NCBI GenBank assembly: GCA_017416765.1
Contig: JAFQBE010000003.1
Coordinates: 199-64,198 of the forward strand
Direction: 5' to 3'
Origin: Clostridia bacterium
GTDB lineage: Bacteria; Bacillota; Clostridia; Oscillospirales; Acutalibacteraceae
Length of the DNA: 64,000 nucleotides
Every line of letters starts with the position of its first letter. Within the stretch, counting starts at the first letter, position 1. The notes beneath the pieces were generated by a model. That model ran no database searches and was not told the origin of the DNA. It worked only from the letters and a program-made list of their open reading frames with translations. A program made the translations under genes and the position numbers. Below are positions 17,301 through 35,656 of the stretch, in pieces.

Positions 17301-20300
17301 AAGCCAAATCTTCAGCACTCATAACCTGTGAAAGAGTAACATTTTCAGCATAGGTATCAGCTGATGTTATAAGTGGATTATTGTTTTCTATTGCACAGAA
17401 AATATCATAGCACTGAATAATTGTTGAAGAAGCATTTACCTTTTCAATTGTGGAATAGAGGTTTGATGCATTGAAAACAAAGTATGTGTTTTCATAACGA
17501 TAATAGTCATTGCCTGAAACTTCTACTACAAAGGCTGCAGCAAGCTCCATACCGTTGGAGTATGTAAAGACGAGGTTAAACTCAACGGTTTCTGTAAGCG
17601 TTACACCGTCAGCAGGAGCAAGAATATAGCCACCCTCTGCCGCTTTAACCGAAATCTTATTTGAATCGGTTTTTACAGATTCGGGCATCAAAACAGCTGT
17701 CTGTTCAAGAGCGGTATCTGTTCCCCCCTTATTGACAGCAGAAACGGTAAAGCCGTTAATCGAAGCCGCAGAATCAAAGATATAGTTTAAATCATTATCC
17801 GGCACATTTTGCGGCAAAGCATCAAAGCTGAAATCAGACATAGCAACAGGATATCCCGTTGCAAAAAGCAGAGAATTAATCGGAGTTATATTTTCTTCGT
17901 AATCATAATCCTTATGCTTTATACGGTACTGCTCACCAAATGTGAGAGCGCGCGTCTGTTCATTAATGGTATGATTCTTTATACCGGGTTCATTCTCTTT
18001 ATCTGCTTCGTAGCTGTTTATATCGTAGATGTAATCAGTAAGACCGGATTTTGTATTTGCAGAATTGTCATTACCCGACTGTACAGGCTTGAGAACACCG
18101 AAGAGATAAGCCGAGCCGGACTGATACTTATAGCCGGAATAATAGATATTAAAGAAAGGCTGATTGGTATATCCGCTGAATGATGAACCTGAAACCATTA
18201 CACCATTGGAAGGATTAGCTTCAAAATCATAAATGTAGCCGACAACGATACCTGTGGTAGTGGTTTTCTTTACAAATGAATCTTCACCCGCAAGGTTTTT
18301 AAAGCTTGCGGAAATTACACAGTTTTCTGCAAAGTGATGGTTCATCTCGTTAAACTTAGCTTCATCAACAATCATTCCGCTGGTCCAGATAGCACCAACA
18401 AGACCACCTACAGCAGAATCTCCGGAAATTGTTCCACCTACATGGCAATTGGAGATATGAATGCCGGAAAGGTATGTATCTTTTGACAATGAACCAATAA
18501 TACCACCAGCACCCATATTATAATAAAGATTTGATATTGTGTCGGTGATTTTTGTATTATCACTTTCGGTAGCAGTTACTGTTGCCGATGTGTTACAAGA
18601 ATCAATTACTATATTATAAACTCTTATTTTTGATGTATCTGTTGGTGCTTCAAAGCAACCAACGATACCACCTACACCATAGGGTGCTTTAACTGTTGTT
18701 TGCTCATCTAAAGTACAATCGGTAACTGTATGATTAACAGAAGGTGCATCAACACGAGCAATAATACCGGCTGAAGATATTGTTCTGTAAGAATACTTAT
18801 CTGCTGTGTGTATATGTGTTCCTTCAACTATTGTAGAAAAAATATCTACAGCATTGATTGACACTCTTTCAGCAACAACTGATGCATGATTTGTGTTGCT
18901 TGAAAAAGATGAAAACACATCATTTGCATTCGATGTATATGTGCGTACAACAGCACCTGCAGCAATTTCACCCTTGACAAGTGAATCTTTTACAGTATTG
19001 CGCTTGTTACCGTTAGCCGAAATATCACCGGAATATGCAAAAGCTATACCAGCAGCACCATTGTCAAAGTATGTTGAATCATCAGTATCGTTTTCCGTTC
19101 CCTGAATAATTGCACTACCGGAAACGGTAACACCCTTTATTGAAGCTGCGTTCTGATCAGTATGAACAACAATACCGGCAGATGCAAGATCGCCCTGAAT
19201 TGTTGTGGTATAACTGCTGTCAGCGGTTCTTTCACCTATTAACTTTGATTCGGAAATATTCCAAGAAATTGCGCCTTGACCTGCACTGAACAAGCCTCCA
19301 AATAAGCCTGCAGTATAATCTGCACCGCTTATATGAGCATTTTCTACTGTAACATTTGTAGCATTAAGCGAACCGGTTGCTACCGCTGCAACAGCTGCAG
19401 CGTATTTAACATCAGCCGTTGAAGTAACATCGGTTATTTTAAAATTATCAAAAGATGCATTTTGAGTGTAACCGAACAAACCGGCTACTTTATTTGTATC
19501 AGCAGACGCCGTTAACTGTAAACCGGAAATTTCAAACTGCTCATTTCCCGCATCCTTTCTTGAACCGAAAGTACCTGTAAACGGAGCACTTGATGTACCT
19601 ATAGGAGTAAAGCCGCCCTTATACATACCGTTGGTGGGATCAAACATATTTTCAGTAAATACGATATCATTTGCTAACCAATAGTTATAAGCAAGAGCTT
19701 CATCCTTGATTAGTTTAAAATCAATCGGATCTGTTATAAGGCGATATGTTGTTCCGTTATAGTTAACAGTCTGTAAAGGAACAAAAGCTGTTGAAGTAAA
19801 TTTAAATCCTACAGGAAGGCGCGCTTCATATGACCACCCTTCCCCGTCTGTAACTGAACCGATATAATCAATACTTACATCAATTGTTTCGGGGTTTTTA
19901 GGTGTAACGGTAAGTGAATTATATTCCGTATCGGAAACAATAGCGATACTGGGATTAGAACCGACCCAATGCGGTTTCTTACCGTTTTTATCCGCTGTAT
20001 CTAAACGGAATTCGCCACGGTTTACTTCCGGGAAAACATAACCTACAAATTCCGTACCGGAAGAATAATCAGTGAGCTGAGGCTCAACATTACCATTATC
20101 AAAGTCACTACCTTTAAGATTAACATCATAATAGCAATTAACTATTAAAGAAAAAGTTTCAAAATAAGTAGGTATATAATTTGACCAATTATTTGACTTA
20201 TCAGCACCGCAATAACCCATAAACGGGAATGTTGTTGTATCAATAGCAAATGATGAATAGTAAATGTTACTAAAGGTATAGGACATATCATCACCTATAA

Positions 20301-23300
20301 CCATTTCCAAGGCGAAACCAGATCCTGAGTATCCGCCTGCAATGTAGGAATCCGTATTAGCAACTATACTACCAATTGTAACACCGCCACGTATCATGGT
20401 ATTAGTTTCATTTGCTAATGTAGATTTAAGTGAACCGGATATTACAATATTTTTAAGTAGATCTTTGGGAAGATGAGTTTCTTCTGAGTACTCATAGCAA
20501 AAAGCAGATGTTATGGAACCAATTGCGCCACCAATACAATCTGTACCAATAATACTGCCGTCAAATACACTGTCAGTAATTGAGAGATATTGCGTATAAG
20601 CAACATATTCACTATAAAGATCAATGCCCCTGAAAAATCCAATAAAACCACCTGTACCGACACGCCAATACTCCTGATCGGTATGGTATGGCTCAGAAAC
20701 CACATTCATATCAGCCACTGAAGTAATCTGAGCTGATACAGTGTTATAAGAAAGTTTTAACTGCGTTCCAGTAGATTTATATTGAGTTGCTAAACCAACA
20801 ATACCGCCTGTTGCAGAAAAATATTTTAAAGTCTCATTATCGCATTCAATATAATTGGTGATTATTGTTTGAAAATCGACATCACAATACTTGATATTCA
20901 CATCTGATATGTAAGAATCTCTATATGAATTATAGTTTGCAGTATTAGTACCAAGTATGCCTCCTACACCGAAATCATAAGTTTCTAGTGAATATCCACA
21001 AGGAACACAATCTTTGACAGTAGTAATAACAGATAAAAAAACATCACAATTGTTAATATGCAACACATTACCGATATTAACATATAACATAATGTTAGCG
21101 CCAACTATACCGCCAACAACAACGCCTTCAACCAAACTGTTTTTAAGAACACAGTCAACAAGCGTATCACCTTCTGCCGGACCGTTAACAGCACCGACTA
21201 TGCCGCCAACAACAACATTACGATTCTTGACAGCAGTCGGTGAAGAAATATTGATATCTGTCGCTTTAATTTCTGCATTTTCAACAACTGCATTGCTTAT
21301 AAAACCATATATCTTGCTGACTGCTTCTATCGCATCAGCATTATCATAAGATCTGTATGGACCTACATAACCAGCTATACCACCGATATAAAGTTCGGTA
21401 GTACTGTGGATAGTTGTACCTTTTTCTGAATCTGCAGAAACCTTTACATTTTTTATTGTTGTTTTAGCGTTTGTAGCCGCAACGATACCGCCGGCATTAC
21501 CTGCCGACCTGACAGTAAGATTTGAAACCGTAATATCGAAGTCTGCTTCATCTTCCGGAACTTCTCGGCCAATATTAAGAGAAGATGCAGACATATTTGC
21601 TGCTGTTTCATAATATTTCTGATAAGTACCGATAAGGCCGCCGGCATTAACAGTGGCATAACCATAAACGTTGCCGATACTTGGACCTGCAACAACAATA
21701 TTGCTTGCTGCAACACCATAAACATTTATTGTATGTGCTTCAGTATCGCTTTCTTCAGCTGAACCTATAATAGCGCCGATACCGCCGATAACAACAGCAT
21801 TGTCCTTAAAGAATTTAGCACCATCGGTATATGACGTCTGTACCGTAACACCGTTAAGGGTAACATTATATATATCTGCATCACAGTCTTTCATGCTTGC
21901 TACAACAGCAGCAACACTTTTACCTGTACCGATTGCAGATGAGTCAATTATTTCTACATCATGGATATTGACTTTATCAATGCCTGTACCGACAAGCACA
22001 GCTGTACTGTCGCCGCCTGAAACAGCAAAATCCCTTATTTTCAAATTATATATACCGGAATCAGATGAAACACCGTTAACACTTACACCTTCAGAAAAAT
22101 CAACAGCAGCAAAAAGAGCAGAATTGTCATTGGTACTTGTGATTGTAAGTTCGCTGATTTCGTAATTGTTACCATCAAATATACCTGTGAAAGGATAAGC
22201 GTTAGAGCCTATGGGCGGAATTACAGTATCGCCCATGCGTATATTTGCGTCCAACTTATATGCTTTTGAAAGATAGGTTAAATCTTTATTTTCAGAATCA
22301 GGATTGACTTTGTTGGAAAGCATAACCAAATCTTCTTTGGTAGAAAGGATTATATAGCCGTCCTGTGTTACAAAATCGGAAGATTTTACAAGATATTTTA
22401 CATATGTCTGGAAGCCTGTTTCAAAGTTAACAACTTTAAGATAAACACTGTCACCTGCCTGCGCAGAGGTTGCTGCTTTGACAGTTACATTGAGTTTACC
22501 GTTTTCTACAGTAATACCTTCAATAGTAAATTTATCTGCCTCATATGCAGTTTCATTATTATTACTATCAATATTAATAAGAGAAACCGTAAAGTCGGAA
22601 ACAGAAGCACCTTCAAAGGCTGTGACATGCTGCGGAATATCAACAGTCCATACAAAGTCGCCGCCTGCCATCATGTTCTGAGTAGGTACACTTTCCCCAC
22701 CCCAAAGAGATACGCTTTCCTGCTCAACATTGGAAGCCTTATTGGTTGAAGCAAAGCTAAGCTTTGACCAAACTATATTTTTATAAGCTCTACTATATAC
22801 ACCGGCATGTTTACCAAATACCGCATAAACATATGTAGAACCAATAATACGGGAGCTGATAATACTGTTTGCTATAAGACCGCTGTTCTGTTCAGAATCT
22901 GCAATAAAGGCTGCACGGGAAATTTCGTTGCTGTCCCCAGATACATAAACACTTATTGCATTAACAAAACAATTATCAACAACTACTGCACCGCTGACAT
23001 AAGCAATAAAGCCTGCAACATAGTTTGTTGCACCGAATTTTACAGATACATCGGTTGAGCAGCCATAAATATAACTGTTACCTACTGCGCAATCAATAAA
23101 TGCAGCAGAATATGCAGGTGCTTTTGAAAGGTCTGCGATATAGCCTTCATATACAGTTTCGTCACCGTCATCCGGTGTGGGATCGCCGTCGGAAAGAGCA
23201 ACTTTTACAATTGTGGAATCATATACGGTACCCAAAACAGATTCGTCTATATCTGCTGAAAGCTCAAAATTAAGATTTGATATATAGCCGCCCTTTCTGT

Positions 23301-25659
23301 TGGCTGTATCCAAATTTGGGTCGCTGACTGCATCTTTATAGTACGGACCTTTATCGCGTGTACCGATAACTGCTGTAAATAGCTTTGTATCTGTTGCAAT
23401 AATATTATCGTCACCGTAAATTGAACCTGTAAAGATTGTTTTTGTCCAGGAAGACTCTGTAATAGCAATATCAGTTGTGATCTTATAATTACCGTACGGT
23501 GCAAGATGAATATACTGTGCCATTGCAGTCGACTTGATTTCAAACGGACTGCCTACACCTTTTGAAGGGTCGTAATCGGGATCACCTGTGGCATTGCTTG
23601 TGACAAAAATATCAAGAGCAAATGAAACCGGCAGATTCTGCATTGAAGATGCACCGGCACCTGTTCCCGCAAAATCAAAATCAGCCAAATATGATTTAGT
23701 TATAAGTGTGTTGTTGGAACCCGAACCCGTGTATGAAACATCGTCGCTTACTGTAACAATTGCCGCTGTAGTTCCTTCAATAACATTGAACGCATGTGTG
23801 TTATCTGCTGCATTGAGATTGCCTAAATCGCCACGTTCTACAACAACAGCTCTGTTTGAAGAAACAAGCTTACCGGCAGAAGTTTCAAGGATATAGGGGC
23901 GTCTTGAATCAACAGTATCAGTAAATACGTATGCAGTTGCACATTTACTTATTGCATCAGACCAATAGCAACCGGAAGCTTGGGCAGCATTGCCGCCAAA
24001 ACCGATTACCGCACCTATATACTCCCTTGCAGGATTAATAAGCCTTACAAGCGTATAGCAATTTGAAATTGCCCCGTCAGGTGTGTTACTGTCTGCAAAT
24101 GCAACAATACCGCCGGCATAACCATAGGTTTCGTTGTCTGACAAAAATGAACCTGTAGCAACACAGCCAGAAATTATACCACCGCTAACTATACCGGTAT
24201 TTTCATCTTTTTGTCCTATTGTAACAGCAGCAATACCGCCGTAATAGCCATTGTAAAGTGCTGACTTCATGTATGCACCGACATTATGAACTGTGGAAGA
24301 AACGATTTCGCCATTATTAACAGAAGTTATACCACCGTAATATGCAAAATTTTCACCGCAATCAACACCGCAATAAATATTGTATGATGATGCTGTTGCC
24401 GCCTGAGCTGATGTTACAGAGCCTGTTACGGTAGAGTTATAGACATAACCCTTATTGTAACCGACAAGACCGCCGACATAACCGCCGCCGGTTATATTAT
24501 TTTTGATATCAGCTGTACCTGCAAAATCAACAACACAGTTTTTAATACCATTCTCTGTTCCGCTTGTTTCATTATAACCGACAAGACCACCGATATAATG
24601 ATTGTTACTTGTTATGTTAAGTTTAATTTCGGAAACTGATGATGAATCAACTATGCCGCGGTTCTGTCCTACAAGACCTGCTACATAGTCGTTGCTTGAT
24701 TTTGTCGGGAGATTAACTGTAAAGTTATTTACCTTAACATTCTCGATCCTTGATCTGTTATCGGAAACAGCGGCAGCAATACCGTTGTAAAGAACATATG
24801 TATCAATTGTTACAGAAGAACCATCCGTATTTTCTGAACTGATGTCAGGAGAAACAAGTTCGATTTTACTGTCAACAATTTCACAGTTTGAAATTGTGCC
24901 GGCATTCATGTACGAAATAACAGCCATACGCTTGGGCTGGTCAGATGTTGCAGCAACATTAATGTCTTCAAATATAACATTGCTGATTTCAGATTTTTCA
25001 TTGAGATAACCGAACAGTGCGAAGTTTTCATGGGGTACGCTGATTCGTGTACCTTCACTGCAGCTGATAACATATTTTTTTACATCGCCGTTTTCTTCGT
25101 ACACAATGTTACCCTGCGTATCCCTTACAGTACCATCAAGAATAAAACGCACAACATCGGAAGTCGGCTGTCTGAAATTAGTTGAAACAAGATAGGCATT
25201 ACCGGCTTTTTCAGGGAAGGGCAATTCAACACCTTCTGCAAAAAGAGGTGAAAGATCAATATTAGCACCGAGTCTAAAGTATTTATTTGATGTATCATCA
25301 GCCTGAAGATTGGGGAACTGGGCATTGACAATTTTATTTGCTTCAAGGAAATCGGAAGCATCCATAATAATATAAGGATTCTGCTGTGTACCCTCACCTT
25401 CAAGTGTTATTTCTTCAGCCGCTTGAAGTTGTATTGAAACATCGGAATCAAGAGTAAGTTCACCGCCCTGAACCGAAATTTCAGGTTCGGAGGATTCGGC
25501 ATCAACAGAGGAACCGGAGGCAGATTCAATGGCAGAAAGAGAATTGGCAACGCTGTCCTGGTTTGCGTAAACCAAGAGATTGTATGCACCAGTAGACGAC
25601 AGCAGTAATGCCGTCGCCAAAAGTATTACAAATGAGCGGAATGCCAACCTTTTCTTCAT
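8305..25659 (-). CDS. giant (5,784 aa) secreted GLUG-repeat, beta-helix-type surface/adhesin-like protein
   Basis: Single uninterrupted 17,355-nt ORF; GGAGG 8 nt upstream; Sec-type signal MKKRLAFRSFVILLATALLLSSTGAYNLLVYA/NQ; dozens of GG(L/I)(V/A)G GLUG-type repeats; at least 8 module heads of the form PY-x-I...(N/D)IDL...PIG...PF-x-G-x-(F/Y)DG-x-G(Y/F)-x-I-x-x-L; no LPXTG, SLH, TM or choline-binding tail recognised. Confidence 0.9.
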   Translation of the reverse strand: MKKRLAFRSFVILLATALLLSSTGAYNLLVYANQDSVANSLSAIESASGSSVDAESSEPEISVQGGELTLDSDVSIQLQAAEEITLEGEGTQQNPYIIMDASDFLEANKIVNAQFPNLQADDTSNKYFRLGANIDLSPLFAEGVELPFPEKAGNAYLVSTNFRQPTSDVVRFILDGTVRDTQGNIVYEENGDVKKYVISCSEGTRISVPHENFALFGYLNEKSEISNVIFEDINVAATSDQPKRMAVISYMNAGTISNCEIVDSKIELVSPDISSENTDGSSVTIDTYVLYNGIAAAVSDNRSRIENVKVNNFTVNLPTKSSNDYVAGLVGQNRGIVDSSSVSEIKLNITSNNHYIGGLVGYNETSGTENGIKNCVVDFAGTADIKNNITGGGYVGGLVGYNKGYVYNSTVTGSVTSAQAATASSYNIYCGVDCGENFAYYGGITSVNNGEIVSSTVHNVGAYMKSALYNGYYGGIAAVTIGQKDENTGIVSGGIISGCVATGSFLSDNETYGYAGGIVAFADSNTPDGAISNCYTLVRLINPAREYIGAVIGFGGNAAQASGCYWSDAISKCATAYVFTDTVDSRRPYILETSAGKLVSSNRAVVVERGDLGNLNAADNTHAFNVIEGTTAAIVTVSDDVSYTGSGSNNTLITKSYLADFDFAGTGAGASSMQNLPVSFALDIFVTSNATGDPDYDPSKGVGSPFEIKSTAMAQYIHLAPYGNYKITTDIAITESSWTKTIFTGSIYGDDNIIATDTKLFTAVIGTRDKGPYYKDAVSDPNLDTANRKGGYISNLNFELSADIDESVLGTVYDSTIVKVALSDGDPTPDDGDETVYEGYIADLSKAPAYSAAFIDCAVGNSYIYGCSTDVSVKFGATNYVAGFIAYVSGAVVVDNCFVNAISVYVSGDSNEISRAAFIADSEQNSGLIANSIISSRIIGSTYVYAVFGKHAGVYSRAYKNIVWSKLSFASTNKASNVEQESVSLWGGESVPTQNMMAGGDFVWTVDIPQHVTAFEGASVSDFTVSLINIDSNNNETAYEADKFTIEGITVENGKLNVTVKAATSAQAGDSVYLKVVNFETGFQTYVKYLVKSSDFVTQDGYIILSTKEDLVMLSNKVNPDSENKDLTYLSKAYKLDANIRMGDTVIPPIGSNAYPFTGIFDGNNYEISELTITSTNDNSALFAAVDFSEGVSVNGVSSDSGIYNLKIRDFAVSGGDSTAVLVGTGIDKVNIHDVEIIDSSAIGTGKSVAAVVASMKDCDADIYNVTLNGVTVQTSYTDGAKFFKDNAVVIGGIGAIIGSAEESDTEAHTINVYGVAASNIVVAGPSIGNVYGYATVNAGGLIGTYQKYYETAANMSASSLNIGREVPEDEADFDITVSNLTVRSAGNAGGIVAATNAKTTIKNVKVSADSEKGTTIHSTTELYIGGIAGYVGPYRSYDNADAIEAVSKIYGFISNAVVENAEIKATDINISSPTAVKNRNVVVGGIVGAVNGPAEGDTLVDCVLKNSLVEGVVVGGIVGANIMLYVNIGNVLHINNCDVFLSVITTVKDCVPCGYSLETYDFGVGGILGTNTANYNSYRDSYISDVNIKYCDVDFQTIITNYIECDNETLKYFSATGGIVGLATQYKSTGTQLKLSYNTVSAQITSVADMNVVSEPYHTDQEYWRVGTGGFIGFFRGIDLYSEYVAYTQYLSITDSVFDGSIIGTDCIGGAIGSITSAFCYEYSEETHLPKDLLKNIVISGSLKSTLANETNTMIRGGVTIGSIVANTDSYIAGGYSGSGFALEMVIGDDMSYTFSNIYYSSFAIDTTTFPFMGYCGADKSNNWSNYIPTYFETFSLIVNCYYDVNLKGSDFDNGNVEPQLTDYSSGTEFVGYVFPEVNRGEFRLDTADKNGKKPHWVGSNPSIAIVSDTEYNSLTVTPKNPETIDVSIDYIGSVTDGEGWSYEARLPVGFKFTSTAFVPLQTVNYNGTTYRLITDPIDFKLIKDEALAYNYWLANDIVFTENMFDPTNGMYKGGFTPIGTSSAPFTGTFGSRKDAGNEQFEISGLQLTASADTNKVAGLFGYTQNASFDNFKITDVTSTADVKYAAAVAAVATGSLNATNVTVENAHISGADYTAGLFGGLFSAGQGAISWNISESKLIGERTADSSYTTTIQGDLASAGIVVHTDQNAASIKGVTVSGSAIIQGTENDTDDSTYFDNGAAGIAFAYSGDISANGNKRNTVKDSLVKGEIAAGAVVRTYTSNANDVFSSFSSNTNHASVVAERVSINAVDIFSTIVEGTHIHTADKYSYRTISSAGIIARVDAPSVNHTVTDCTLDEQTTVKAPYGVGGIVGCFEAPTDTSKIRVYNIVIDSCNTSATVTATESDNTKITDTISNLYYNMGAGGIIGSLSKDTYLSGIHISNCHVGGTISGDSAVGGLVGAIWTSGMIVDEAKFNEMNHHFAENCVISASFKNLAGEDSFVKKTTTTGIVVGYIYDFEANPSNGVMVSGSSFSGYTNQPFFNIYYSGYKYQSGSAYLFGVLKPVQSGNDNSANTKSGLTDYIYDINSYEADKENEPGIKNHTINEQTRALTFGEQYRIKHKDYDYEENITPINSLLFATGYPVAMSDFSFDALPQNVPDNDLNYIFDSAASINGFTVSAVNKGGTDTALEQTAVLMPESVKTDSNKISVKAAEGGYILAPADGVTLTETVEFNLVFTYSNGMELAAAFVVEVSGNDYYRYENTYFVFNASNLYSTIEKVNASSTIIQCYDIFCAIENNNPLITSADTYAENVTLSQVMSAEDLALLAASVHPNPKFEAGVDERTEIDIEEYLGVTDLANVKLSKLVDGVSATQYGTYTENSSDHFDLDFAGDYRVLSAVAVDNINSTGLTQAGDYFSIYGFESHDDVNVTAQGEDAEKSGFFNSLNGATVTGLTFVNPKIEVIGSRDAENFVGVLAGSAVGATITDVSVERIGTQGEAYVMSLRQMIPASTNVGGIVGSADAATKINNCSVSGLDVIGATLAGNTSGKLYTVKVGGIAGSSAAEIVDASVSDSRILAERYDRFRNTYVSYAGGIAAWATGNITNAEVNNTQLRDATCSVNVTGTTAAGSYVANADDHELVADRIGGIVAHSYGNVNIASAKLHGVSITAFDTAGGIIGEIENDDEAVVNITNSNVGDYAVAGSNADIRVLSSSNLSTSNLRQFYNVAGGIVGKVDNLASLNINGSGFSGYVGTYSYDNLNKDCTAGGVIGYISEQLENISSLTVVDTTVSGEVSGFRSGKTAPAFEPYLGAAGGYIGKIRSTVSDAGETPLVSHGVMSAEVNLYTNSTGTMVDATNATVKDPQSVSTNVGKLLGFAIEGNNFATSAEDLTAYFENIYVSSYPQDIIAYGCKDFYGQKNTAETYTDINVATYTYTEDGTTYTENGKSFMVGTSEDISISPADDKYSSSALIPLDTENIGEEGVSASRHFRLVYNDIKFKSDNTSSDVISYNKENGAHIVLNEGETSAVISIDNYEKPYGTLTISQVKEDIIGDLVLTYSYGLEVGIRLITVEIEGMGEEDDPYLISTPKHFDVVRALPDAYYKQVNNIDLAPQYGYSTTVTSPLWKDGQGFEPIGTKQIPFIGSYDGGGYLITNLYINRSSDYAGLFGCVGSGAELKNIHIELAGPMTVNTNPENFNITADLVGGITANSYVGGLAGRVNNATVTNCSVVKGNVIGDTALGGLIGESAGATIDSCFISTTVYSKLTGKEYSGQNKNAGALVGFVSGTTSVSGSFTFGYVSLGVKESNDERIYGAVGGLAGYVGTNAKLEISDVFVGASVSDSNGINFYKGLTIGGSNTQRSDITAKNVRISAAVAATQVGDTDKINPVLGVLGGVTVPDDAKGSVIYDADLMGIAAEQAVVDEQGNPIVDENDEVVTEWVTVVSDESGVTPASGEDFSLNGVNLAANAGTDAYTLAYVELAKLQVDPSAKEITDRQNNTLYKDGLFYPVTVMGEGIIASSSRFDTSDNLDDYPSEMDTELYGDGKDKSIRNTDLLFENVQGGIKVYINIFKEDAEKYTGEVLKNGEMFYNDRVPYFVVTDSAPVTVDDTSVELYRKVVYPVQVRNDSIGRIYPISTERQLNSIGIKATDEYGKVIDTKFVALTPDKSYTFTDDIVLGNYKFNPIPDYSGRFEGNGFKLSNLNIEASDNTGFIGTMLGGSLSNMVLEIGTVSGGNNVGALVGSIQPAEGKTVNITNCSVSHLMKDKESADGETAEKEPVGSGVIGSNNVGGLVGYAKGGTGSIISHSFTQVTVSGTNVVGGLVGYNEMAVDNSYATGDVNSSITGTYSGTHGIGGLVGVSNGSAAVISSSFSSSAVDVGLNDGMTYITSSEYGVGGLVGHVGDGAQLSGVFSSGGVRYSYSDGDSEDDNETGSSVELPSCQSLTLGVGGLVGVLGSSTLNVYSSASVAAKFGDVSAASAVGAGGLFGVIKAGVEYGYSSGSTLAEPRMKDYSSANYGVGGVIGVIAGGVSAKHLRYDLNVSAIEYDAETDASQGSVGKVISGSFDNAAQATTAQFIDGSSLQSELGGSVFGYTPGAYPYLKALFNENVSRTIQFNALLSVVAIELNPLDQMAAEGKGISMAMNIPTEVTHNGTAYTFGFEADNTQQGSAKAIVDPNTNTLSVQRSSNKAEQANFIITIETVGGQKVDPSDGVVYSTVASRPLSRICAQMLGTDDYPFLVASQEDMKHVAMTSNELTATAAADPESLYLEWNEPLDANTDSNDTKVYYRMMGNVYLDGTYTRPVGFAALAHGYSFDGNGYFVHGLRETLADTVNESSVITNVTFKDTVFSEGESLVGNLDGIVRGVNVFSMPVNEKNTDGTLKYTHTKSSGNNVAGIAQTVNKNGIIEGCVVNLDWEGTANDSFAGIALTNNGTIAMSASVGDITGSANSAAAFVGENNNTISTCFTMGDILLDSPTSSVSGFVGTNNSAITNCYTRCNIIVRGENSGLNAGSFAANNGTNGTINACYAAGLFTVDNAGTTHVFVGHNDGSINDSMFDKQMSGSSFADDFYLAERTLEVATLSNMNIMVKGAYVVSDNAGKTAVIDGVETVVDIEYPQLKAILDTKVLEETGEADKDGNKIKEETEQSLMYRTLRSYSNLSSAGAMVNNDNYIDYLPYGTDTVISSKFIWKMADESVAEMDDFAGGGKYFTTNNKAASTIISVRNPDITNKPDLGIEIEEYHSYTKEESKIYDTYNLHITVNNNPNPNFSGGNGTEETPYIIATKEQVVALSYYGSNPDSYFIIGEVTDAEGNDIDDITNGALDMTGTDWGAYIDLFSANLDGRGYTLSNVTIPPEGDNALIGVIDGGNISNLGIAGISITVPEGNTDAAGMLAAKAMNNTSTITNCVVVGTVTGPDGKAATSEYIGGLIGDAQGPVIIDGCVVSGKVVNSEGSAGGVIGKAENGVSVTNSLSTVLVDGGNSAVGGIIGSGPANTTDSVSVSNTVFAGNVNGATVGNIAGDGKNITVTNSYYDKQLSMVAAEENGVTAASTHYLTTALVSDFVSTMGRINSFSGYPVPAAIASGENYGDAFMNAVKLASAKISFVNGTGAGTSKVFTGVAADDWGAIMTVSGDTVKYFGATTSGTSLKADTSSLALGETAEGEFTYTLADTSLVRYIDFTLGKTVKAVQYKLKDSGIADSSKAIISVVTGVGEGKSAATIFDSTANYAESYESICNNMIFAYDEELEAYTFTVTAQLDEKLIAEDIDVKFDNVNVSADIIKNQNGSFTVVIGSEATTELVNFTTVSIDITAVEEAWGVHKLVSFF

Positions 25660-30527: not shown

Positions 30528-31400
30528 TTAAGCTGCGGGTTCTTCTTCACTTGATGAACCGAAGGAGATTTTAGCTGAAAGGTGCTTTGCGGAAAGCTTT
30601 TCACCTGTACAGTCAGCATCGTTACCTTCAATCCAGATGCGTACTATGATTTCATCAGAACCGGTATTACCGGAAATCTGCGGAAGCTCAAAAGTAGCTT
30701 CGTACTTGTTGATTTCTGCTTCGCTCGCTGTAAGCTGACCAACAATATTCTGAGTTGAAACATAAGAACCATTGAAGTTAGCATCTTCAGAATCAAGAAT
30801 GCTGTTGTTGTTTGAATCCTTAACAGTTGCAGCAGGAAGTTCGTTTGTAACAACTGCCTGTGCGCTGTCGCCTTCCATGGCGAATACTGTTGTCTGACCT
30901 TTATATGTAACTGAAACACGGGCTGCTTCAACAGCTGCGTTATCGCCATCGCGACCTGTAAGGGCGATGTTCATTCTGCCGTCAACAGTTTCTGTTGTTG
31001 TGGAACGGATTTTGATTGTAAGTTCGTTATAATCGCTGCCCTTTTCGGGTGTAAGGGAAGCGAAGTAGCCGCCTTCAAGACCGACCTTTGTGAAAGCTGC
31101 ACCGTCAGCGCTTGAAACAGGAGAATAGCTGCCGTCTTCTGCTATAAGCTCACCTTCTGCGAAACAGTCTCTCTGGAGATATGCGCCCCATTCAACTGTC
31201 TCTGTTTCTTCTGCGCCCATGTGAGCATGACCAGCGGAACCCTGAATTTCAATACCACCGCCGGCTTCAATAACATCGAAGCCCAGGTCGAACAGCTCTG
31301 CGAAGCCACCGACAAGGAACCAGGCGTATGTACCGGATACCATTGTTGTTGCGGCAACGATAAGAACGATGATAGACATTCCTAATTTGCGTTTTGCCAT
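30528..31400 (-). CDS. TasA-like fibre subunit candidate with SipW-cognate signal
   Basis: MAKRKLGMSIIVLIVAATTMVSGTYAWF signal; C-terminal VRIWIEGNDADC motif shared with 32909-33712 and 33845-34717. Confidence 0.7.
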   Translation of the reverse strand: MAKRKLGMSIIVLIVAATTMVSGTYAWFLVGGFAELFDLGFDVIEAGGGIEIQGSAGHAHMGAEETETVEWGAYLQRDCFAEGELIAEDGSYSPVSSADGAAFTKVGLEGGYFASLTPEKGSDYNELTIKIRSTTTETVDGRMNIALTGRDGDNAAVEAARVSVTYKGQTTVFAMEGDSAQAVVTNELPAATVKDSNNNSILDSEDANFNGSYVSTQNIVGQLTASEAEINKYEATFELPQISGNTGSDEIIVRIWIEGNDADCTGEKLSAKHLSAKISFGSSSEEEPAA

Positions 31401-31461: not shown

Positions 31462-31646
31462 GCGGACGGCCGATGGCCGCCCCTACGGTTTGGTTTGTTT
31501 CGGACAACCATAGGTCGCCCATAAGGTTTTGTTTTGCGGGCGATTCGTAAATCGCCCCTATGGTTTAATATTGTTATTAATATTATAAATATTTAGTTAA
31601 TACTATTCGGGATTTTTTCGCGGACGACCGAAGGCCGCCCCTACGA
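31462..31646 (-). repeat. four copies of a ~27-nt GC-rich hairpin repeat (consensus TTTGCGGACG-stem-loop-stem-CGCCCCTACGGTTT)
   Basis: Copies at 31462-31488, 31500-31527, 31536-31563 (about 37-nt spacing) and 31619-31646; 7-8 bp stems with 3-6 nt loops. Confidence 0.8.
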
Positions 31647-31648
31647 TT

Positions 31649-32617
31649 TTATTTATCAGATTCTTCGGCGGCTTTTTCGGCTTCCTGCTGTGCGAGGTAT
31701 TCAGCGATAGCCTGTTTTTTGAGTTCTTCCTCTTTAGCGGCCTTCTCAGCGGCAGCCTTTTCAGCCTCCTGCTGTTTGATATATTCTTCAACAGCCTTTT
31801 TCTTTATTTTCTCTTCTTCGGCTGCTTTTGCGGCGGCAGCTTTTTCAGCCTCCTGCTGCTTGATATATTCTTCAACAGCTTTTTTCTTTATTTCGTCTTC
31901 TGTTTCTTCCTTCTTTTCGGGTTCAGCCGGAGCCTGTGGCTTTTCTTCCGGCGCTTTTGCGGGAGCGGAATTGCTTTCAGCCTGATGTGCCTGAATTTCA
32001 GCCATCAAGCGCTGCTTGATTTCTTCTTCCGCATCCTTAACAGCAGCAACAGCTTTTTCTTTCTTTGCGTCCATAAGAGTTGAAATAAACTTGAACAGTT
32101 CAAAGAAGAAGAATATAGCGGTCGGAATAACTACGCAAAGCATGAAACCGAGCTGTGACTGGAGAAAATCCATTATTGTACCGAGTTTCGGAATTGCTAT
32201 ACCAGTCCAAACACCTATGATACTTTCACAGTTGATCGGGAACTCATCATGAGTAACGGTATTATCACCTTTAGTGGTATAATAGTTGTATGAACCATGC
32301 CATTCTTTTTCAATAATTCTATGGGTATCATAGTACATCTGCTGTTCATAATATGCAGTATATGTTACTACATCACCTACATTCAAATCATTAGCTTGGT
32401 CTCTATCCAATAATTCAATTACAATCAAAGAACCAACTGGAAAGCCTTCCGGTCCTTCCATTGAATCCGTTTGAACAGACATTATTGCCTTACCGAACAA
32501 ATTAGGAAGTTTTGCATCTCCTACCGTTGATGAAATAACTAATACAGTCATAACTATTGAAAATATTAAAATAATGGTTACAAAAACATTTCCAACAATT
32601 TTTCCTACTTTTTTCAC
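31649..32617 (-). CDS. SipW-type (S26B) signal peptidase I with a ~140-aa charged C-terminal cytoplasmic tail
   Basis: VQTDSMEGPEGFPVGSLIVI, DTHRIIEK and KGDNTVTHDEF boxes; second TM LGFMLCVVIPTAIFFFFELF; start set at GTG 32617 (GGAGG 9 nt upstream); the track ORF starts at a TTG at 32680. Confidence 0.8.
   Translation of the reverse strand: MKKVGKIVGNVFVTIILIFSIVMTVLVISSTVGDAKLPNLFGKAIMSVQTDSMEGPEGFPVGSLIVIELLDRDQANDLNVGDVVTYTAYYEQQMYYDTHRIIEKEWHGSYNYYTTKGDNTVTHDEFPINCESIIGVWTGIAIPKLGTIMDFLQSQLGFMLCVVIPTAIFFFFELFKFISTLMDAKKEKAVAAVKDAEEEIKQRLMAEIQAHQAESNSAPAKAPEEKPQAPAEPEKKEETEDEIKKKAVEEYIKQQEAEKAAAAKAAEEEKIKKKAVEEYIKQQEAEKAAAEKAAKEEELKKQAIAEYLAQQEAEKAAEESDK
31753..31894 (-). repeat. 84-nt tandem duplication within the peptidase tail coding region
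   Basis: 31753-31810 and 31837-31894 are near-identical (about 3 mismatches in 58 nt); they encode KKKAVEEYIKQQEAEKAAA twice. Confidence 0.8.
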
Positions 32618-32711
32618 TAAATTATTCCTCCGGATATTTAAAATTTGGGAGCAACTGTCATTTCGATTTTGATTATTCAATCAATATCCAAATCGCACCT
32701 GCTCAATCGGA

Positions 32712-32908: not shown

Positions 32909-33712
32909 TTATTTTGCAAGGTTAAGGCTAAGAGTGATGTTATCTGTATTTACAAGACCGAAACAGTCAGCATCCTGACCTTCTGCCCATACAAATACAT
33001 CGAAGGAAACCTTATTTGTTTCGCCTGTTGCACCTTCAGCAAATGTGTAGCTGATTGTCTGAGTAGCAGCTTCGCCAACTGTTACAGCTGTGCCAAGTGC
33101 AAGACCGTCGGTAGAAGCAGCAGCTTCTGATGCATCGATAATACCATTAGCGGGAATAGCGGAGTCAGCAGCTGTACCTGCAGCACCGATGGGTGTGTAG
33201 GTGTTGTCCTTAGCACCGAACAGTGTGTATGCACCGTTGTTAAGCATTGCACCGTAAACATAACCACTTGCAGATGTGAGAGTGGGAGTTACTGTAACTG
33301 TACAAGGAACTTCAGCATAAAGATAAACTGTGAACTTAATGTACTTGCCGTTAAGCTGGTCAGCAGATGCTTCAGAAGCATTGAGAACAGAGATTGCTGA
33401 ACCCTCAGCCTGAGCAAGGTTAGCGTTGAACCACTTCTTAGCAGTTACATCAAAAGAAACAGGAGTAAGGGCAGCGGGGAAGCTGTTGCCTGTAACAGCA
33501 CTGAGTGAAGTCTGTTCAAGGCTTGTGCCCCATGTGCCTGTTGCGCCTGTTGCTGAGATGTAGATAGAACCTGCATCGTTAGCTGTTGTTGCGGAAATGC
33601 CTGTAACAGAAGCTGTGTTAGCTGCTGCGAACCAAGCGTAGGTTGATGATGTGAGAACTATTGCAGATACCATGAGCATCGCAAGAGCTGCCACGAGTGA
33701 ACGTTTTTTCAT
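32909..33712 (-). CDS. TasA-like fibre subunit, candidate major subunit (SipW-cognate signal)
   Basis: MKKRSLVAALAMLMVSAIVLTSSTYAWF signal; mature part is very rich in A/T/S/G and poor in charge; C-terminal VFVWAEGQDADC motif; start set at ATG 33712 (GGAGG 8 nt upstream); structured spacers on both sides. Confidence 0.75.
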   Translation of the reverse strand: MKKRSLVAALAMLMVSAIVLTSSTYAWFAAANTASVTGISATTANDAGSIYISATGATGTWGTSLEQTSLSAVTGNSFPAALTPVSFDVTAKKWFNANLAQAEGSAISVLNASEASADQLNGKYIKFTVYLYAEVPCTVTVTPTLTSASGYVYGAMLNNGAYTLFGAKDNTYTPIGAAGTAADSAIPANGIIDASEAAASTDGLALGTAVTVGEAATQTISYTFAEGATGETNKVSFDVFVWAEGQDADCFGLVNTDNITLSLNLAK

Positions 33713-33844
33713 AGTTTTTTCCTCCATTTAAGAGTTAGTGTTTTTTTAGGGATTAGAAACACATTTTATCCAAAGTGTTTCGGACTTTATGCGGGGTTAA
33801 TCAAACGCTGTGACAAGGAAAAGCTTTATTAAGTCTCCCCCAAC

Positions 33845-34717
33845 TTATTGGGCTTCTTTGTCGAGAACCTCAAGGTTCATCTTGAGTTTGACTTCACCTC
33901 CCATAATGTCGTTAACACATTCAGGATCTTCGCCTTCCAGCCAGACGACGACAGTATATCTGTCACTTTCGTCTACCTTGAAGTTTCGGCGGATATGTTC
34001 CATGACTACCGTATCGGAGACAAAGTTTTTATCCGCTTCGAATGTTTCCTTTTTGTTTTCGGTACCTACCTGCGGTTTTGCGTAAACCGTAGGCTTACCG
34101 TTTATGAAAACCATGACGCGTATTGCTTCGTCAGCACCCTTGTAGGCTGTGACTACTTCAAGACTTGCCAGGTAATCAACCGTTGCATCCTCTCCGCCCG
34201 GAATTTCTTCGCCGGCGTTACGCACCGCAAAGGTATAGGCGAGGTAGTTGGTGCCGTTATGGTCACCGTAGACTTTATCAATTGCTTCGTAGCTTTCGTA
34301 AACCGGGTCATCACCAAGCTCACCGTTCTGGTTGAGTAGCCAATGCTTTGTTATGTTATCCATGTTTTCGATTGCCGAGCCGTAAAGCTGAAGCGTGGGA
34401 TTTTCAAACTTTTCGTTATCTGCAAGCTGGATACCGTAGAGGTTGCCCGCCATGCTGACCGTAAAACGGCCTGCGCTGTTGATAACCGAGGTACAGGCAT
34501 AGCCTATAGCAAGCAGTATCAACAAAATGCCGACGATAATAGCAAGAATACGGATTAACCAATTGCGCTTATAAACTTTTTCGGCAGAGGTATTAACATC
34601 GTACTTATCCATGCCGTCCGGACTGAGTGCCGGTATGTAAGGACCGCTGGCGCCGGGAACGAAGCCGTTGTTTACGGGCTGCTCGGCTGCGGCGGTTTCT
34701 TTTTTCTTTTTAGCCAT
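33845..34717 (-). CDS. membrane-anchored protein with a TasA-like extracellular domain (anchor/nucleator candidate)
   Basis: Cytoplasmic N-terminus MAKKKKETAAAEQPVNNGFVPGASGPYIP, TM WLIRILAIIVGILLILLAIGYA, C-terminal VVVWLEGEDPEC motif; start set at ATG 34717 (GGAG upstream); the longer track ORF reads into a hairpin repeat. Confidence 0.65.
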   Translation of the reverse strand: MAKKKKETAAAEQPVNNGFVPGASGPYIPALSPDGMDKYDVNTSAEKVYKRNWLIRILAIIVGILLILLAIGYACTSVINSAGRFTVSMAGNLYGIQLADNEKFENPTLQLYGSAIENMDNITKHWLLNQNGELGDDPVYESYEAIDKVYGDHNGTNYLAYTFAVRNAGEEIPGGEDATVDYLASLEVVTAYKGADEAIRVMVFINGKPTVYAKPQVGTENKKETFEADKNFVSDTVVMEHIRRNFKVDESDRYTVVVWLEGEDPECVNDIMGGEVKLKMNLEVLDKEAQ

Positions 34718-34750
34718 ATTTATCAACTCCGATGAATTAATTCGGGTTAT

Positions 34751-34777
34751 GCGGACGGCCATTGACCGCCCCTACGA
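34751..34777 (-). repeat. single copy of the GC-rich hairpin repeat
   Basis: GCGGACGGCCATTGACCGCCCCTACGA, between the EAL gene stop and the next start. Confidence 0.75.
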
Positions 34778-34785
34778 AAGGTAGA

Positions 34786-35583
34786 TTATTTGATTTTCTT
34801 TTCGTCCCAAAGCTCTTTGCAGTACTGTTTACCGCGAAGCCTGTCTGCACCCATTTTTGTAAGTAACGCTGCAAGCTCGGGAGTATCCACACCGCTTACC
34901 ATTGTTTTAACGCCGAGTTTTTTTGCAAAATCCATAACACCCTGAACGATTATTCTCGGTCTGTCCTCATCCTCGTAAAGCTCGGGGTTAATGGGTTCTA
35001 CCAGCTTGCTGTTGATGCCTATGTAATCAACCTCATACTGGGAAAGGTTTGACATTGAGGTATATTCAACGCCGACATCGTCAATTGAGAAGTAGCAGCC
35101 CTCTTCACGCAGAGCAACTATATTCTTTCTGACCTGCTCGCTGTCGCTTGCGTAGATGCTTTCGGAAATGTTGAAGCAGAACTTGTCAAACTCAACGCCC
35201 TTCTTTTCGAGAATCTTTTTAACCTGCGATACAAAGTAGGGCTTTGCAAGGTACTTGACAGAGATATCAAGAATAAAGCTGTTGATGCTTGCCTCTCTTG
35301 CTTCTGCACGGTTGAGCACATCGCAGCATTCTTCGATTGCCCAACGGTTAATTTCGCAGATGCGGTTGCTTTTTTCTGCAACGGGGATGTAGTATTCGGG
35401 AAGCATGACACCCATTTTTAAATCGTTTATGCGAACGCTTGTTGCATAGTCGAGAGCCATGTTGAGGTGATTGTCGAAAACGGGTTCAAACATGAGAACC
35501 ATCGGACGGTTGCGTCTGCCGCCGGTGTTTTTCTTTTGCTGAACCTCATTTTGTTCAGCGGAAAGATTTTTGTTTTCTGCCAT
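34786..35583 (-). CDS. stand-alone degenerate EAL-domain protein (likely inactive phosphodiesterase, possible c-di-GMP receptor)
   Basis: EAL-fold landmarks in the canonical order: FEPVFD, YIPVAEKSNRI, SIDDVGVEYTSMSNL, MVSGVDTPE. Catalytic positions are changed: EAL to TSV, N to D (LDIS), ExTE to NISE, KxD to GIN, EGVE to SGVD, QG to RG. Start set at ATG 35583; the track ORF begins at a TTG. Confidence 0.7.
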   Translation of the reverse strand: MAENKNLSAEQNEVQQKKNTGGRRNRPMVLMFEPVFDNHLNMALDYATSVRINDLKMGVMLPEYYIPVAEKSNRICEINRWAIEECCDVLNRAEAREASINSFILDISVKYLAKPYFVSQVKKILEKKGVEFDKFCFNISESIYASDSEQVRKNIVALREEGCYFSIDDVGVEYTSMSNLSQYEVDYIGINSKLVEPINPELYEDEDRPRIIVQGVMDFAKKLGVKTMVSGVDTPELAALLTKMGADRLRGKQYCKELWDEKKIK

Positions 35584-35656
35584 TGATGCCTGACCCCTTT
35601 GCAAATTAATTATTTATATATAATTATTATATATGAAGATAAAAATACACAGTAGA

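Follow-up and report, generated by a model that had tools for sequence, protein, structure and literature searches.

The SipW signal peptidase of Bacillus subtilis and the CoCoPALM clade of McrBC systems are the closest described counterparts of the gene analyzed here. In SipW, Ser47, His87 and Asp106 are essential, and a short C-terminal tail lies on the cytoplasmic side of the membrane (PMC8767453). SipW reportedly also turns on matrix genes at solid surfaces in a peptidase-independent manner, for which the C-terminal 20 residues on that side are required (Terra et al. 2012, as summarized in PMC8767453; also PMC4238804). CoCoPALM is the name given to a large McrBC clade in which the GTPase is fused to an FtsB-like transmembrane (TM)/coiled-coil domain and is tied to proteins of the signal peptidase family (Bell et al., eLife 2024, PMC11090510). 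The main text of that paper introduces the name in one paragraph and defers the description, and in the literature collection searched, only the eLife paper and its preprint were relevant for 'CoCoPALM'. The subject of the present analysis is a SipW-like S26B signal peptidase (paralogue 1) encoded in a 64000-nucleotide window, that is, the whole stretch of DNA that was analyzed, from a Clostridia bacterium of the Acutalibacteraceae (assembly GCA_017416765.1, contig JAFQBE010000003.1). Approximately 146 amino acids follow the second TM segment of this protein. They carry a repeated 16-residue motif that is, as judged from its sequence conservation, under selection as strong as the catalytic domain, and that may dock the peptidase to an McrBC-like GTPase encoded nearby.

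Paralogue 1 resembles Bacillus SipW in its S26B domain, its two TM segments, a C-terminus predicted to be cytoplasmic, the presence of a C-terminal tail and neighboring genes for secreted proteins of the matrix or fibre type. The tail is approximately 20 residues long in Bacillus and approximately 146 residues long here, and the Bacillus gene stands beside tapA and tasA, whereas paralogue 1 belongs to an McrBC-like cluster. This cluster fits the description of CoCoPALM, as far as the published paragraph goes. It encodes an McrB-like GTPase with an N-terminal TM segment, an adjacent McrC-like protein with a DUF2357 domain and adjacent S26B peptidases. The KE-rich tail of the McrC-like protein (approximately 360 amino acids), a part that some related clusters do not have, is a candidate coiled coil. 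Two points qualify the assignment. The signature of the McrB-like protein is ambiguous: it reads INNDD, which fits NxxD in an ungapped alignment to the E. coli N-T-A-D and fits NxD plus D as well, and NxD followed by D is common in the clade according to the passages concerned (Bell et al. 2024, PMC11090510). In the region of the putative FtsB-like part, the only family match is a weak one to FtsL (E = 0.009, residues 59-135). The CoCoPALM passages of the main text are silent on a peptidase tail, on the motif, on fusions of McrC-like proteins to S26B peptidases and on EAL and beta-sandwich partners. New here is a tail motif without a significant match in Pfam, NCBIfam or PADLOC, in a CoCoPALM-type system that those passages name but do not characterize. 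The link to CoCoPALM was absent from the first-pass annotation of this DNA.

The longest open reading frame (ORF) of the peptidase gene (31649..32680, minus strand) comprises 343 amino acids, and the residue numbers used below follow it. Translation probably starts at the GTG at 32617, for a protein of 322 amino acids, because GGAGGA lies 8 nt 5' of this codon and all orthologues start with MKKVGK at the same position; the annotated TTG start is probably wrong. The tail is the same with either start codon. The SipW-type peptidase with a long tail and three repeats that the first-pass annotation had described is present in this ORF with all of its quoted sequence. The protein scored 69.6 bits against TIGR02228 (sigpep_I_arch, NCBIfam; cut-off 51.85). 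It did not reach the equivalog cut-off of Bacillus SipW (NF046067, 190 bits) with its 104.3 bits, and that alignment stops at residue 211, ahead of the tail motifs. The sole Pfam match was a sub-threshold one to DUF4884 (residues 126-145) inside the catalytic domain; the tail itself gave no significant match in Pfam, NCBIfam or PADLOC. A profile of 121 homologues matched human SEC11C (E = 2e-8) and SEC11A (E = 7e-8). The catalytic core is thus homologous to that of SEC11-type signal peptidases (profile positions 52-173), and the tail matches nothing in SEC11A or SEC11C. Across the 121 sequences S73-M74, H120-R121 and G138-D139 are invariant, and S73, H120 and D139 correspond, by motif context and not by direct alignment, to the Ser/His/Asp residues of B. 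subtilis SipW. On these sequence grounds paralogue 1 is an endoplasmic reticulum-type (S26B, SipW-like) signal peptidase with intact catalytic residues.

Behind TM2 (LGFMLCVVIPTAIFFFFELF) the protein continues with KFISTLMDAKKEKA, a Pro/Glu linker (APAKAPEEKPQAPAEPEKKEE) and the repeats KKKAVEEYIKQQEAEKAAA, KKKAVEEYIKQQEAEKAAA and KKQAIAEYLAQQEAEKAAE. An AlphaFold2 monomer model built on the 121-sequence alignment had a mean predicted local distance difference test score (pLDDT) of 84.3. It places an N-terminal TM helix ahead of a beta-rich catalytic core, and a continuous helix runs from TM2 through the juxtamembrane segment (Table 1). A disordered stretch follows, and then an unbroken helix of 81 residues (262-342) with block-mean pLDDT values of approximately 80-93 beyond its first few residues. 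Lys-rich flanks are found ahead of TM1 and past TM2. Because of these flanks, and because the catalytic domain must face outward, we infer that the tail lies in the cytoplasm, as had been proposed before and as in the identical topology of B. subtilis SipW (PMC8767453).

The repeats share the 16-residue motif EEEIKxKA[IV]xE[YF][LI]xxQ. Its strict form, K..[AIV][IV].E[YF][LIM]..Q, was found at five sites in the six frames of the window, with approximately 0.01 occurrences expected by chance (a rough estimate from residue frequencies), and all five belong to the tails of SipW paralogues 1 and 2 of the cluster. In paralogue 2 the motifs read IIQEYLRKQ, IIEEYLAKQ and IIAEFLAQQ. The form [AIV][IV]xE[YF][LI]xxQ was present in one to three copies in 118 of 120 homologues. 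The search that collected them was biased by its word index; column conservation and an exhaustive profile search were hence used as checks. In the 32 closest orthologues, column conservation was 0.93-0.96 for the motif cores, 0.86 for the catalytic domain and 0.76 for the linker. With all 121 sequences included, the values were 0.64-0.74 for three of the four motif cores, 0.66 for the catalytic domain and 0.21-0.30 for linker and spacers; the core of unit 2 scored 0.0 because copy number varies and most rows have gaps there. Judged from these columns, purifying selection on the 16-residue motif is as strong as on the catalytic domain. The tail is therefore not an extension missing from orthologues; it is retained, distant relatives included.

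For the second check, a 30-column profile made from 57 diverse instances of the motif was run against 1.84 billion representative proteins (E <= 1e-3). It returned 119 matches. All 54 of at least 208 amino acids contain the S26B catalytic domain, and 22 shorter ones include part of it. The other 43 are no longer than 207 amino acids, and the 16 of them that were inspected were tail fragments or chimeric short ORFs. Apparent carriers outside S26B were rejected as short fragments or as such chimeras, for example with a cytidylate-kinase-like or RNase HII-like N-terminus abruptly joined to a tail fragment. No protein of the usual 170-190-amino-acid S26B size was among the matches; the shortest complete S26B match has 208 amino acids. 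As far as this exhaustive search shows, the motif is a module specific to the family of SipW-like peptidases, and the sequence pattern singled out in the first-pass annotation thus proved specific to S26B (54/54). Most family members have one copy only, and all related sequences derive from uncultured gut Clostridia.

The three distal repeats are 28 amino acids long, with a coding period of 84 nt: self-identity was 0.53 at offset 84, the highest among the offsets tested, and a separate repeat search also recovered repeat families 84 nt apart in the tail DNA. The array was missed by Tandem Repeats Finder at a minimum score of 30. The 58-nt segments 31753-31810 and 31837-31894 agree at 54/58 positions. 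Unit identity is highest between units 1 and 2 (Table 1), followed by 56/84 for units 2 and 3 and 54/84 for units 1 and 3. This near-identical duplication had been read as a sign of recent expansion, which holds for the near-identity of units 1 and 2 and fails for the copy number. Orthologues at 64-78% identity have the same three units with 28-residue spacing, and their units 1 and 2 are identical at only 56-62/84 nt. Since these orthologues already have three units, the triplication is, by this comparison, old, and units 1 and 2 appear to have been homogenized recently in this lineage, by gene conversion or re-duplication.

Close to the membrane lies a fourth copy, which is degenerate (EEEIKQRLMAEIQAHQ). 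This copy, the triple motif in paralogue 2 and the age of the triplication had been overlooked in the first-pass annotation. In the degenerate copy, all 121 sequences share E228, and nearly all share K222 and Q233. Many relatives have a canonical core (EEEIKKKAIAEYLAQQ) near the membrane, beginning exactly 28 residues past the end of TM2. Shorter relatives, of only 224-235 amino acids, hold a single copy, 25 to 27 residues past the end of TM2. Because these short-tailed relatives hold only this one copy, near the membrane, the proximal copy is probably ancestral and the distal copies were probably added later. One 461-amino-acid homologue (P0002, on an 82.6-kb contig of the European Nucleotide Archive) shows an internal duplication of a segment that starts where the catalytic domain finishes and reaches across TM2 as far as the juxtamembrane helix; if real and not an artefact of assembly, it would alter the topology.

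The genomic context of the motif was compared across related loci. In nine genomes (metagenome-assembled genomes of Acutalibacteraceae and other Clostridia) the gene order was the same wherever the contig was long enough. Synteny is kept down to approximately 36% SipW identity: distant loci with peptidases of 36-45% identity have the same order, and their McrB-like proteins are 50-90% identical. A further 79 metagenome loci were examined; these loci are related, and the motif had served as one of three search patterns. Among the 55 motif-bearing S26B genes with enough flanking sequence, 41 lie directly upstream of an McrB-like gene and 11 elsewhere in the cluster. For one more (L007) the contig ends ahead of the McrB-like position; with this one set aside, 52 of 54 belong to clusters that encode a TM-anchored McrB-like GTPase and an McrC-like protein with DUF2357. 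Of the 51 S26B genes without the Y/F motif, 9 are McrB-adjacent, 21 follow the McrC-like gene and 21 are unrelated to such clusters. Across the related loci, an S26B gene stands directly upstream of an McrB-like gene in 50 cases, 41 with and 9 without the Y/F motif.

Further support for a connection between the two protein classes is provided by natural fusions. In L020 (10459-13431), L021 (10517-13486) and L029 (10484-13441) single ORFs of approximately 940-990 amino acids join DUF2357 to a complete S26B peptidase, which has a charged tail of its own; an ER/K-rich coiled-coil region and then a TM helix lie between the two. These fusions are Rosetta-stone evidence that McrC-like proteins and S26B peptidases may act as one membrane complex. 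The peptidases that follow the McrC-like gene form a second S26B type without the Y/F motif (for example L013 6794-7477, L018 9032-9910, L024 12578-13327, L030 5901-6668). These four inspected peptidases and the fused one of L020 have another conserved tail helix, roughly E[KR]L[IMF]REAIEKEKxRL.

Because the McrB-like and McrC-like genes nearly always adjoin the peptidase gene and natural fusions exist, a docking or regulatory role of the tail is reasonable. We favour, with a probability of about 0.5, the reading of the tail as a docking rod in the cytoplasm by which the peptidase is linked to the McrBC-like machine. The motifs would be protein-binding patches on a stiff charged helix, one near the membrane and, in this lineage, three more on a rod past a flexible linker. 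The rod would have one to several valencies and keep the peptidase against parts of the McrBC-like GTPase complex that are cytoplasmic or juxtamembrane. The likeliest contact would be the McrB-like protein or the DUF2357 domain, since both are constant across the clusters, and not the variable KE-rich tail of the McrC-like protein. The first-pass annotation had also proposed a docking or regulatory module, which gene neighborhood and fusions support. It named the charged helices of the McrC-like protein as candidate partners, a choice that we do not favour: the McrC-like proteins of L013, L016 and L036 have no KE-rich tail, and the canonical motif is kept in these loci.

Several observations weigh against docking to the McrBC-like proteins. 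Nine McrB-adjacent peptidases do not have the Y/F motif, so it is not strictly required. Most of them keep a looser hhAEhxxxQ (e.g. ILAELKAQQ); that of L049 has no recognizable form, and that of L047 has a tail of 6 amino acids. L047 (6160-14750) counts in favour of docking as well: it is a complete cluster with peptidases of 189 and 190 amino acids, whose tails comprise only 6-7 residues, and an McrC-like protein of approximately 370 amino acids without a charged tail, and this single lineage may represent a co-loss of the peptidase tails and the McrC tail. The fusions contain the motif-less S26B type and not the motif-bearing one. SipW tail length did not correlate with the length of the McrC-like protein (rho 0.23, p 0.18), and no significant correlation was found between SipW tail length or motif number and the length of the McrC-like or McrB-like protein. 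The association of motif and McrB-adjacency (2x2 Fisher p = 3e-9) is indicative only, because the loci are phylogenetically related and the motif served as a search pattern, so that the p value overstates their independence. Finally, two loci carry the motif with no McrBC genes within approximately 8 kb (L045) and approximately 3.5 kb (L046). Their SipW tails are near-identical and they probably come from one organism; in L045 a transposase gene follows sipW.

These two loci are also what one would expect if the tail were a signalling or regulatory module like the C-terminus of B. subtilis SipW, acting not on the McrBC-like proteins but on some regulator, for example one connected to the EAL protein. 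The matrix-gene activation ascribed to the last 20 residues in Bacillus, in the accounts cited above, is a precedent, and most loci have an EAL gene at the head of the cluster. We consider this explanation unlikely, although it fares best among the alternatives to docking. The motif is tightly linked to McrB-adjacency, and no sequence link to the B. subtilis SipW tail was found: the alignment to the Bacillus model stops at residue 211, ahead of the motif, and all 54 long matches of the exhaustive motif search reach at least 208 amino acids, above the usual 170-190-amino-acid size of S26B peptidases.

The geometry of the distal helix raises the question of self-association. The helix contains only 12 large hydrophobic residues, which form three clusters (I, V/I, Y, I/L) in identical heptad phase, exactly 28 residues or four heptads apart. 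Patches in such a register could bring together homo-oligomers, or hetero-oligomers of the two paralogues, and so cluster the peptidases in the membrane. The confident prediction of one long helix and the multiple copies in both paralogues of this lineage agree with this. It is nevertheless doubtful, and somewhat more so than a signalling role, because most family members have a single copy, four sizeable hydrophobic residues per 28 would make a weak coiled-coil core, and the motifs of paralogue 2 are spaced 18 and 27 residues apart and not 28.

With 73% Glu, Lys and Ala and 0.21 opposite-charge i/i+4 pairs per residue, the distal helix also resembles ER/K single alpha-helices (SAH) and coiled-coil tails, which are likewise long, E/K/A-rich and predicted to form a continuous rod. 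The tail might then be a charged spacer or low-complexity extension without a partner, its motif a mere consequence of helix-forming composition; other KE-rich tails exist in the organism, such as that of the McrC-like protein. This is hardly probable, because conservation is position-specific: an invariant E, a near-invariant K and Q and a single Y/F site stand against freely varying linkers and spacers. In addition, the motif is confined to one protein family among 1.84e9 representatives. The discrete, conserved hydrophobic patches in heptad register fit neither a featureless SAH nor a canonical coiled coil. Least probable is an amphipathic helix on the inner leaflet, suggested on inspection by I, A, I, Y and L on one side of the helical wheel, or a tail that is extracellular through a wrong topology call: the low hydrophobic moment (0.11-0.22), the negative mean hydrophobicity and the acidic net charge led us to reject membrane binding as unlikely, and the positive-inside flanks together with the known S26B topology point to the cytoplasm.

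Table 1. Position and supporting evidence of the peptidase features and the other genes of the cluster (positions refer to the window, residues to the 343-amino-acid ORF of paralogue 1; AF2, AlphaFold2)
Feature	Position	Strand	Evidence or remark
SipW-like S26B signal peptidase gene, paralogue 1	31649..32617	-	ORF; ribosome-binding site; TIGR02228 above cut-off
TM1, residues 27-49	32534..32602	-	AF2 helix 5-50; flank charges; K-rich MKKVGK ahead
Catalytic domain, predicted extracytoplasmic, residues 60-165	32186..32503	-	invariant columns in 121 sequences; beta-rich AF2 core, pLDDT >90
TM2 LGFMLCVVIPTAIFFFFELF, residues 176-197	32090..32155	-	100% column conservation in 32 orthologues; AF2 helix 176-236
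Juxtamembrane helix, predicted cytoplasmic, residues 198-236	31973..32089	-	holds degenerate motif copy EEEIKQRLMAEIQAHQ
Degenerate proximal motif copy EEEIKQRLMAEIQAHQ, residues 218-233	31982-32029	-	aligns with canonical copy of short-tailed relatives
Flexible Pro/Glu-rich linker, residues 238-261	31898..31969	-	AF2 pLDDT <50 at 238-260; least conserved part of tail
Repeat unit 1, residues 258-285, core IKKKAVEEYIKQQ	31826..31909	-	within AF2 helix 262-342
Repeat unit 2, residues 286-313, core IKKKAVEEYIKQQ	31742..31825	-	70/84 nt same as unit 1
Repeat unit 3, residues 314-341, core LKKQAIAEYLAQQ	31658..31741	-	nucleotide comparison of units
SipW-like S26B peptidase, paralogue 2, 289 aa	29612..30481	-	directly upstream of McrB-like gene
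McrB-like GTPase, membrane-anchored, 531 aa	27983..29578	-	PDB McrB E=1.3e-6; NCBIfam McrB 2.8e-7; PADLOC PDC-M26A 1.3e-39
McrC-like protein, 712 aa	25751..27889	-	Pfam DUF2357 5.9e-12, residues 61-186
Secreted beta-sandwich protein, candidate substrate	30528..31400	-	invariant T-x-A-W-F past signal-anchor; AF2 pLDDT 88.6
Secreted beta-sandwich paralogue, candidate substrate	32909..33727	-	ORF and synteny
Membrane-anchored beta-sandwich paralogue	33845..34762	-	predicted cytoplasmic N-terminal segment and TM; ORF and synteny
EAL-domain (cyclic di-GMP phosphodiesterase-type) protein, stand-alone, cluster head	34786..35604	-	Pfam EAL 1.9e-38
5784-aa protein	8305-25659	-	ordinary Sec signal peptide; G/S/V/A/T/N-rich; directly downstream of McrC-like gene

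All genes of the cluster are arranged in a single array on the minus strand, in the order EAL protein, membrane-anchored beta-sandwich protein, secreted beta-sandwich protein, paralogue 1, secreted beta-sandwich protein, paralogue 2, McrB-like protein, McrC-like protein and the secreted protein of 5784 amino acids. In most clusters with two peptidases, those of the paralogue 2 type have three motif copies; a scan limited to the tail found one copy in L001 and L009. The McrB-like protein is the most conserved of the cluster, with 50-94% identity where the peptidase has 36-69%, and its length is nearly constant (mostly approximately 497-535 amino acids). It consists of an N-terminal hydrophobic amphipathic segment, a TM segment (approximately residues 53-82), a helix-prone juxtamembrane segment (column conservation 0.63), an acidic linker and the AAA+ GTPase domain. 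The KE-rich C-terminal part of the McrC-like protein is repetitive and derives from 72/144-nt tandem repeats. Pfam detected only DUF2357 in the McrC-like protein and no PD-(D/E)xK nuclease domain; because of this lack of a nuclease domain by Pfam, the McrB-like/McrC-like pair is, as judged from sequence, probably not a restriction enzyme. At the position of the 5784-amino-acid protein, L010 and L011 encode proteins of 5873 and 6077 amino acids with a faint Peptidase_M26_N match.

The best sigma-70-like promoter site of the region (35685-35657; TTGACA, a 17-nt spacer with TG, TACAAT) lies upstream of the EAL gene. A stand-alone EAL gene heads most related loci. These observations suggest control linked to cyclic di-GMP. 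In L013, L016 and L054 a gene containing an EAL domain is found past the second peptidase instead (GGDEF-EAL by Pfam in L013). Three copies of GCGGACGRCCGAWGGCCGCCCCTACG, a GC-rich repeat that forms a hairpin, are found in the window (31462-31487, 31620-31645 and 34751-34776), with none expected by chance, and two diverged copies lie at 31496-31534 and 31538-31557. All GCGGACGRCCGAWGGCCGCCCCTACG copies are at gene boundaries of the operon: two are intergenic, past the sipW stop codon, and one overlaps the start of the gene for the membrane-anchored beta-sandwich protein. The repeat may be an element of the repetitive extragenic palindrome (REP) type or a signal for mRNA processing or stability.

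The three beta-sandwich proteins finish in W-x-E-G-x-D-x-x-C. The two candidate substrates among them both have a signal-anchor with the invariant T-x-A-W-F behind it. They belong to no Pfam or NCBIfam family and are 'hypothetical' in public records. A PDB sequence search yielded only chance matches to azurin, and their N-termini had no relevant match in NCBIfam. Foldseek found no significant PDB fold for the AlphaFold2 model; a TasA fibre (8aur_A) ranked fourth with E = 9.7e-3 and a TM-score of 0.25-0.30. With no sequence match and no significant fold match, the proteins are not demonstrably homologous to TasA, and we call them candidate substrates only. The T-Y-A-W-F past the signal-anchor resembles G-T-W-A|A-F in the TasA cleavage region. 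The TasA signal is 27 amino acids long.

If the docking reading is extended to these proteins, cleavage and release of beta-sandwich fibre or pilin-like subunits would be coupled to, or gated by, the McrBC-like nucleoside triphosphatase (NTPase). In this more specific and only tentative form, which we hold to be possible but clearly less probable than docking as such, the motif would be a physical coupler, GTP hydrolysis by a former restriction-enzyme motor would gate the cleavage of extracellular beta-sandwich fibres and their assembly, or drive both, and motif copy number would set the stoichiometry of peptidase to motor. Type IV pili and type II secretion offer an analogy of function, in that a membrane peptidase for fibre subunits is encoded together with a membrane-associated NTPase. 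There is no homology: those systems use an aspartic prepilin peptidase and a PilB-type ATPase, whereas an S26B serine peptidase and an McrB-type AAA+ GTPase are found here. If true, this would be a previously unknown NTPase-coupled machine for fibre or pilus biogenesis in Gram-positive gut bacteria.

Signal peptidases are usually seen as stand-alone membrane enzymes. Here, a cytoplasmic extension appears to be conserved as strongly as the active site and to be specific to peptidases that travel with an McrBC-derived GTPase. The motif also offers a way back to the peptidase-independent function of the SipW tail in Bacillus. For the abundant gut Clostridia that carry it, the 16-residue motif would be a small, mutable handle on how a restriction-type AAA+ GTPase may have been recruited to the assembly of surface fibres or biofilm matrix.

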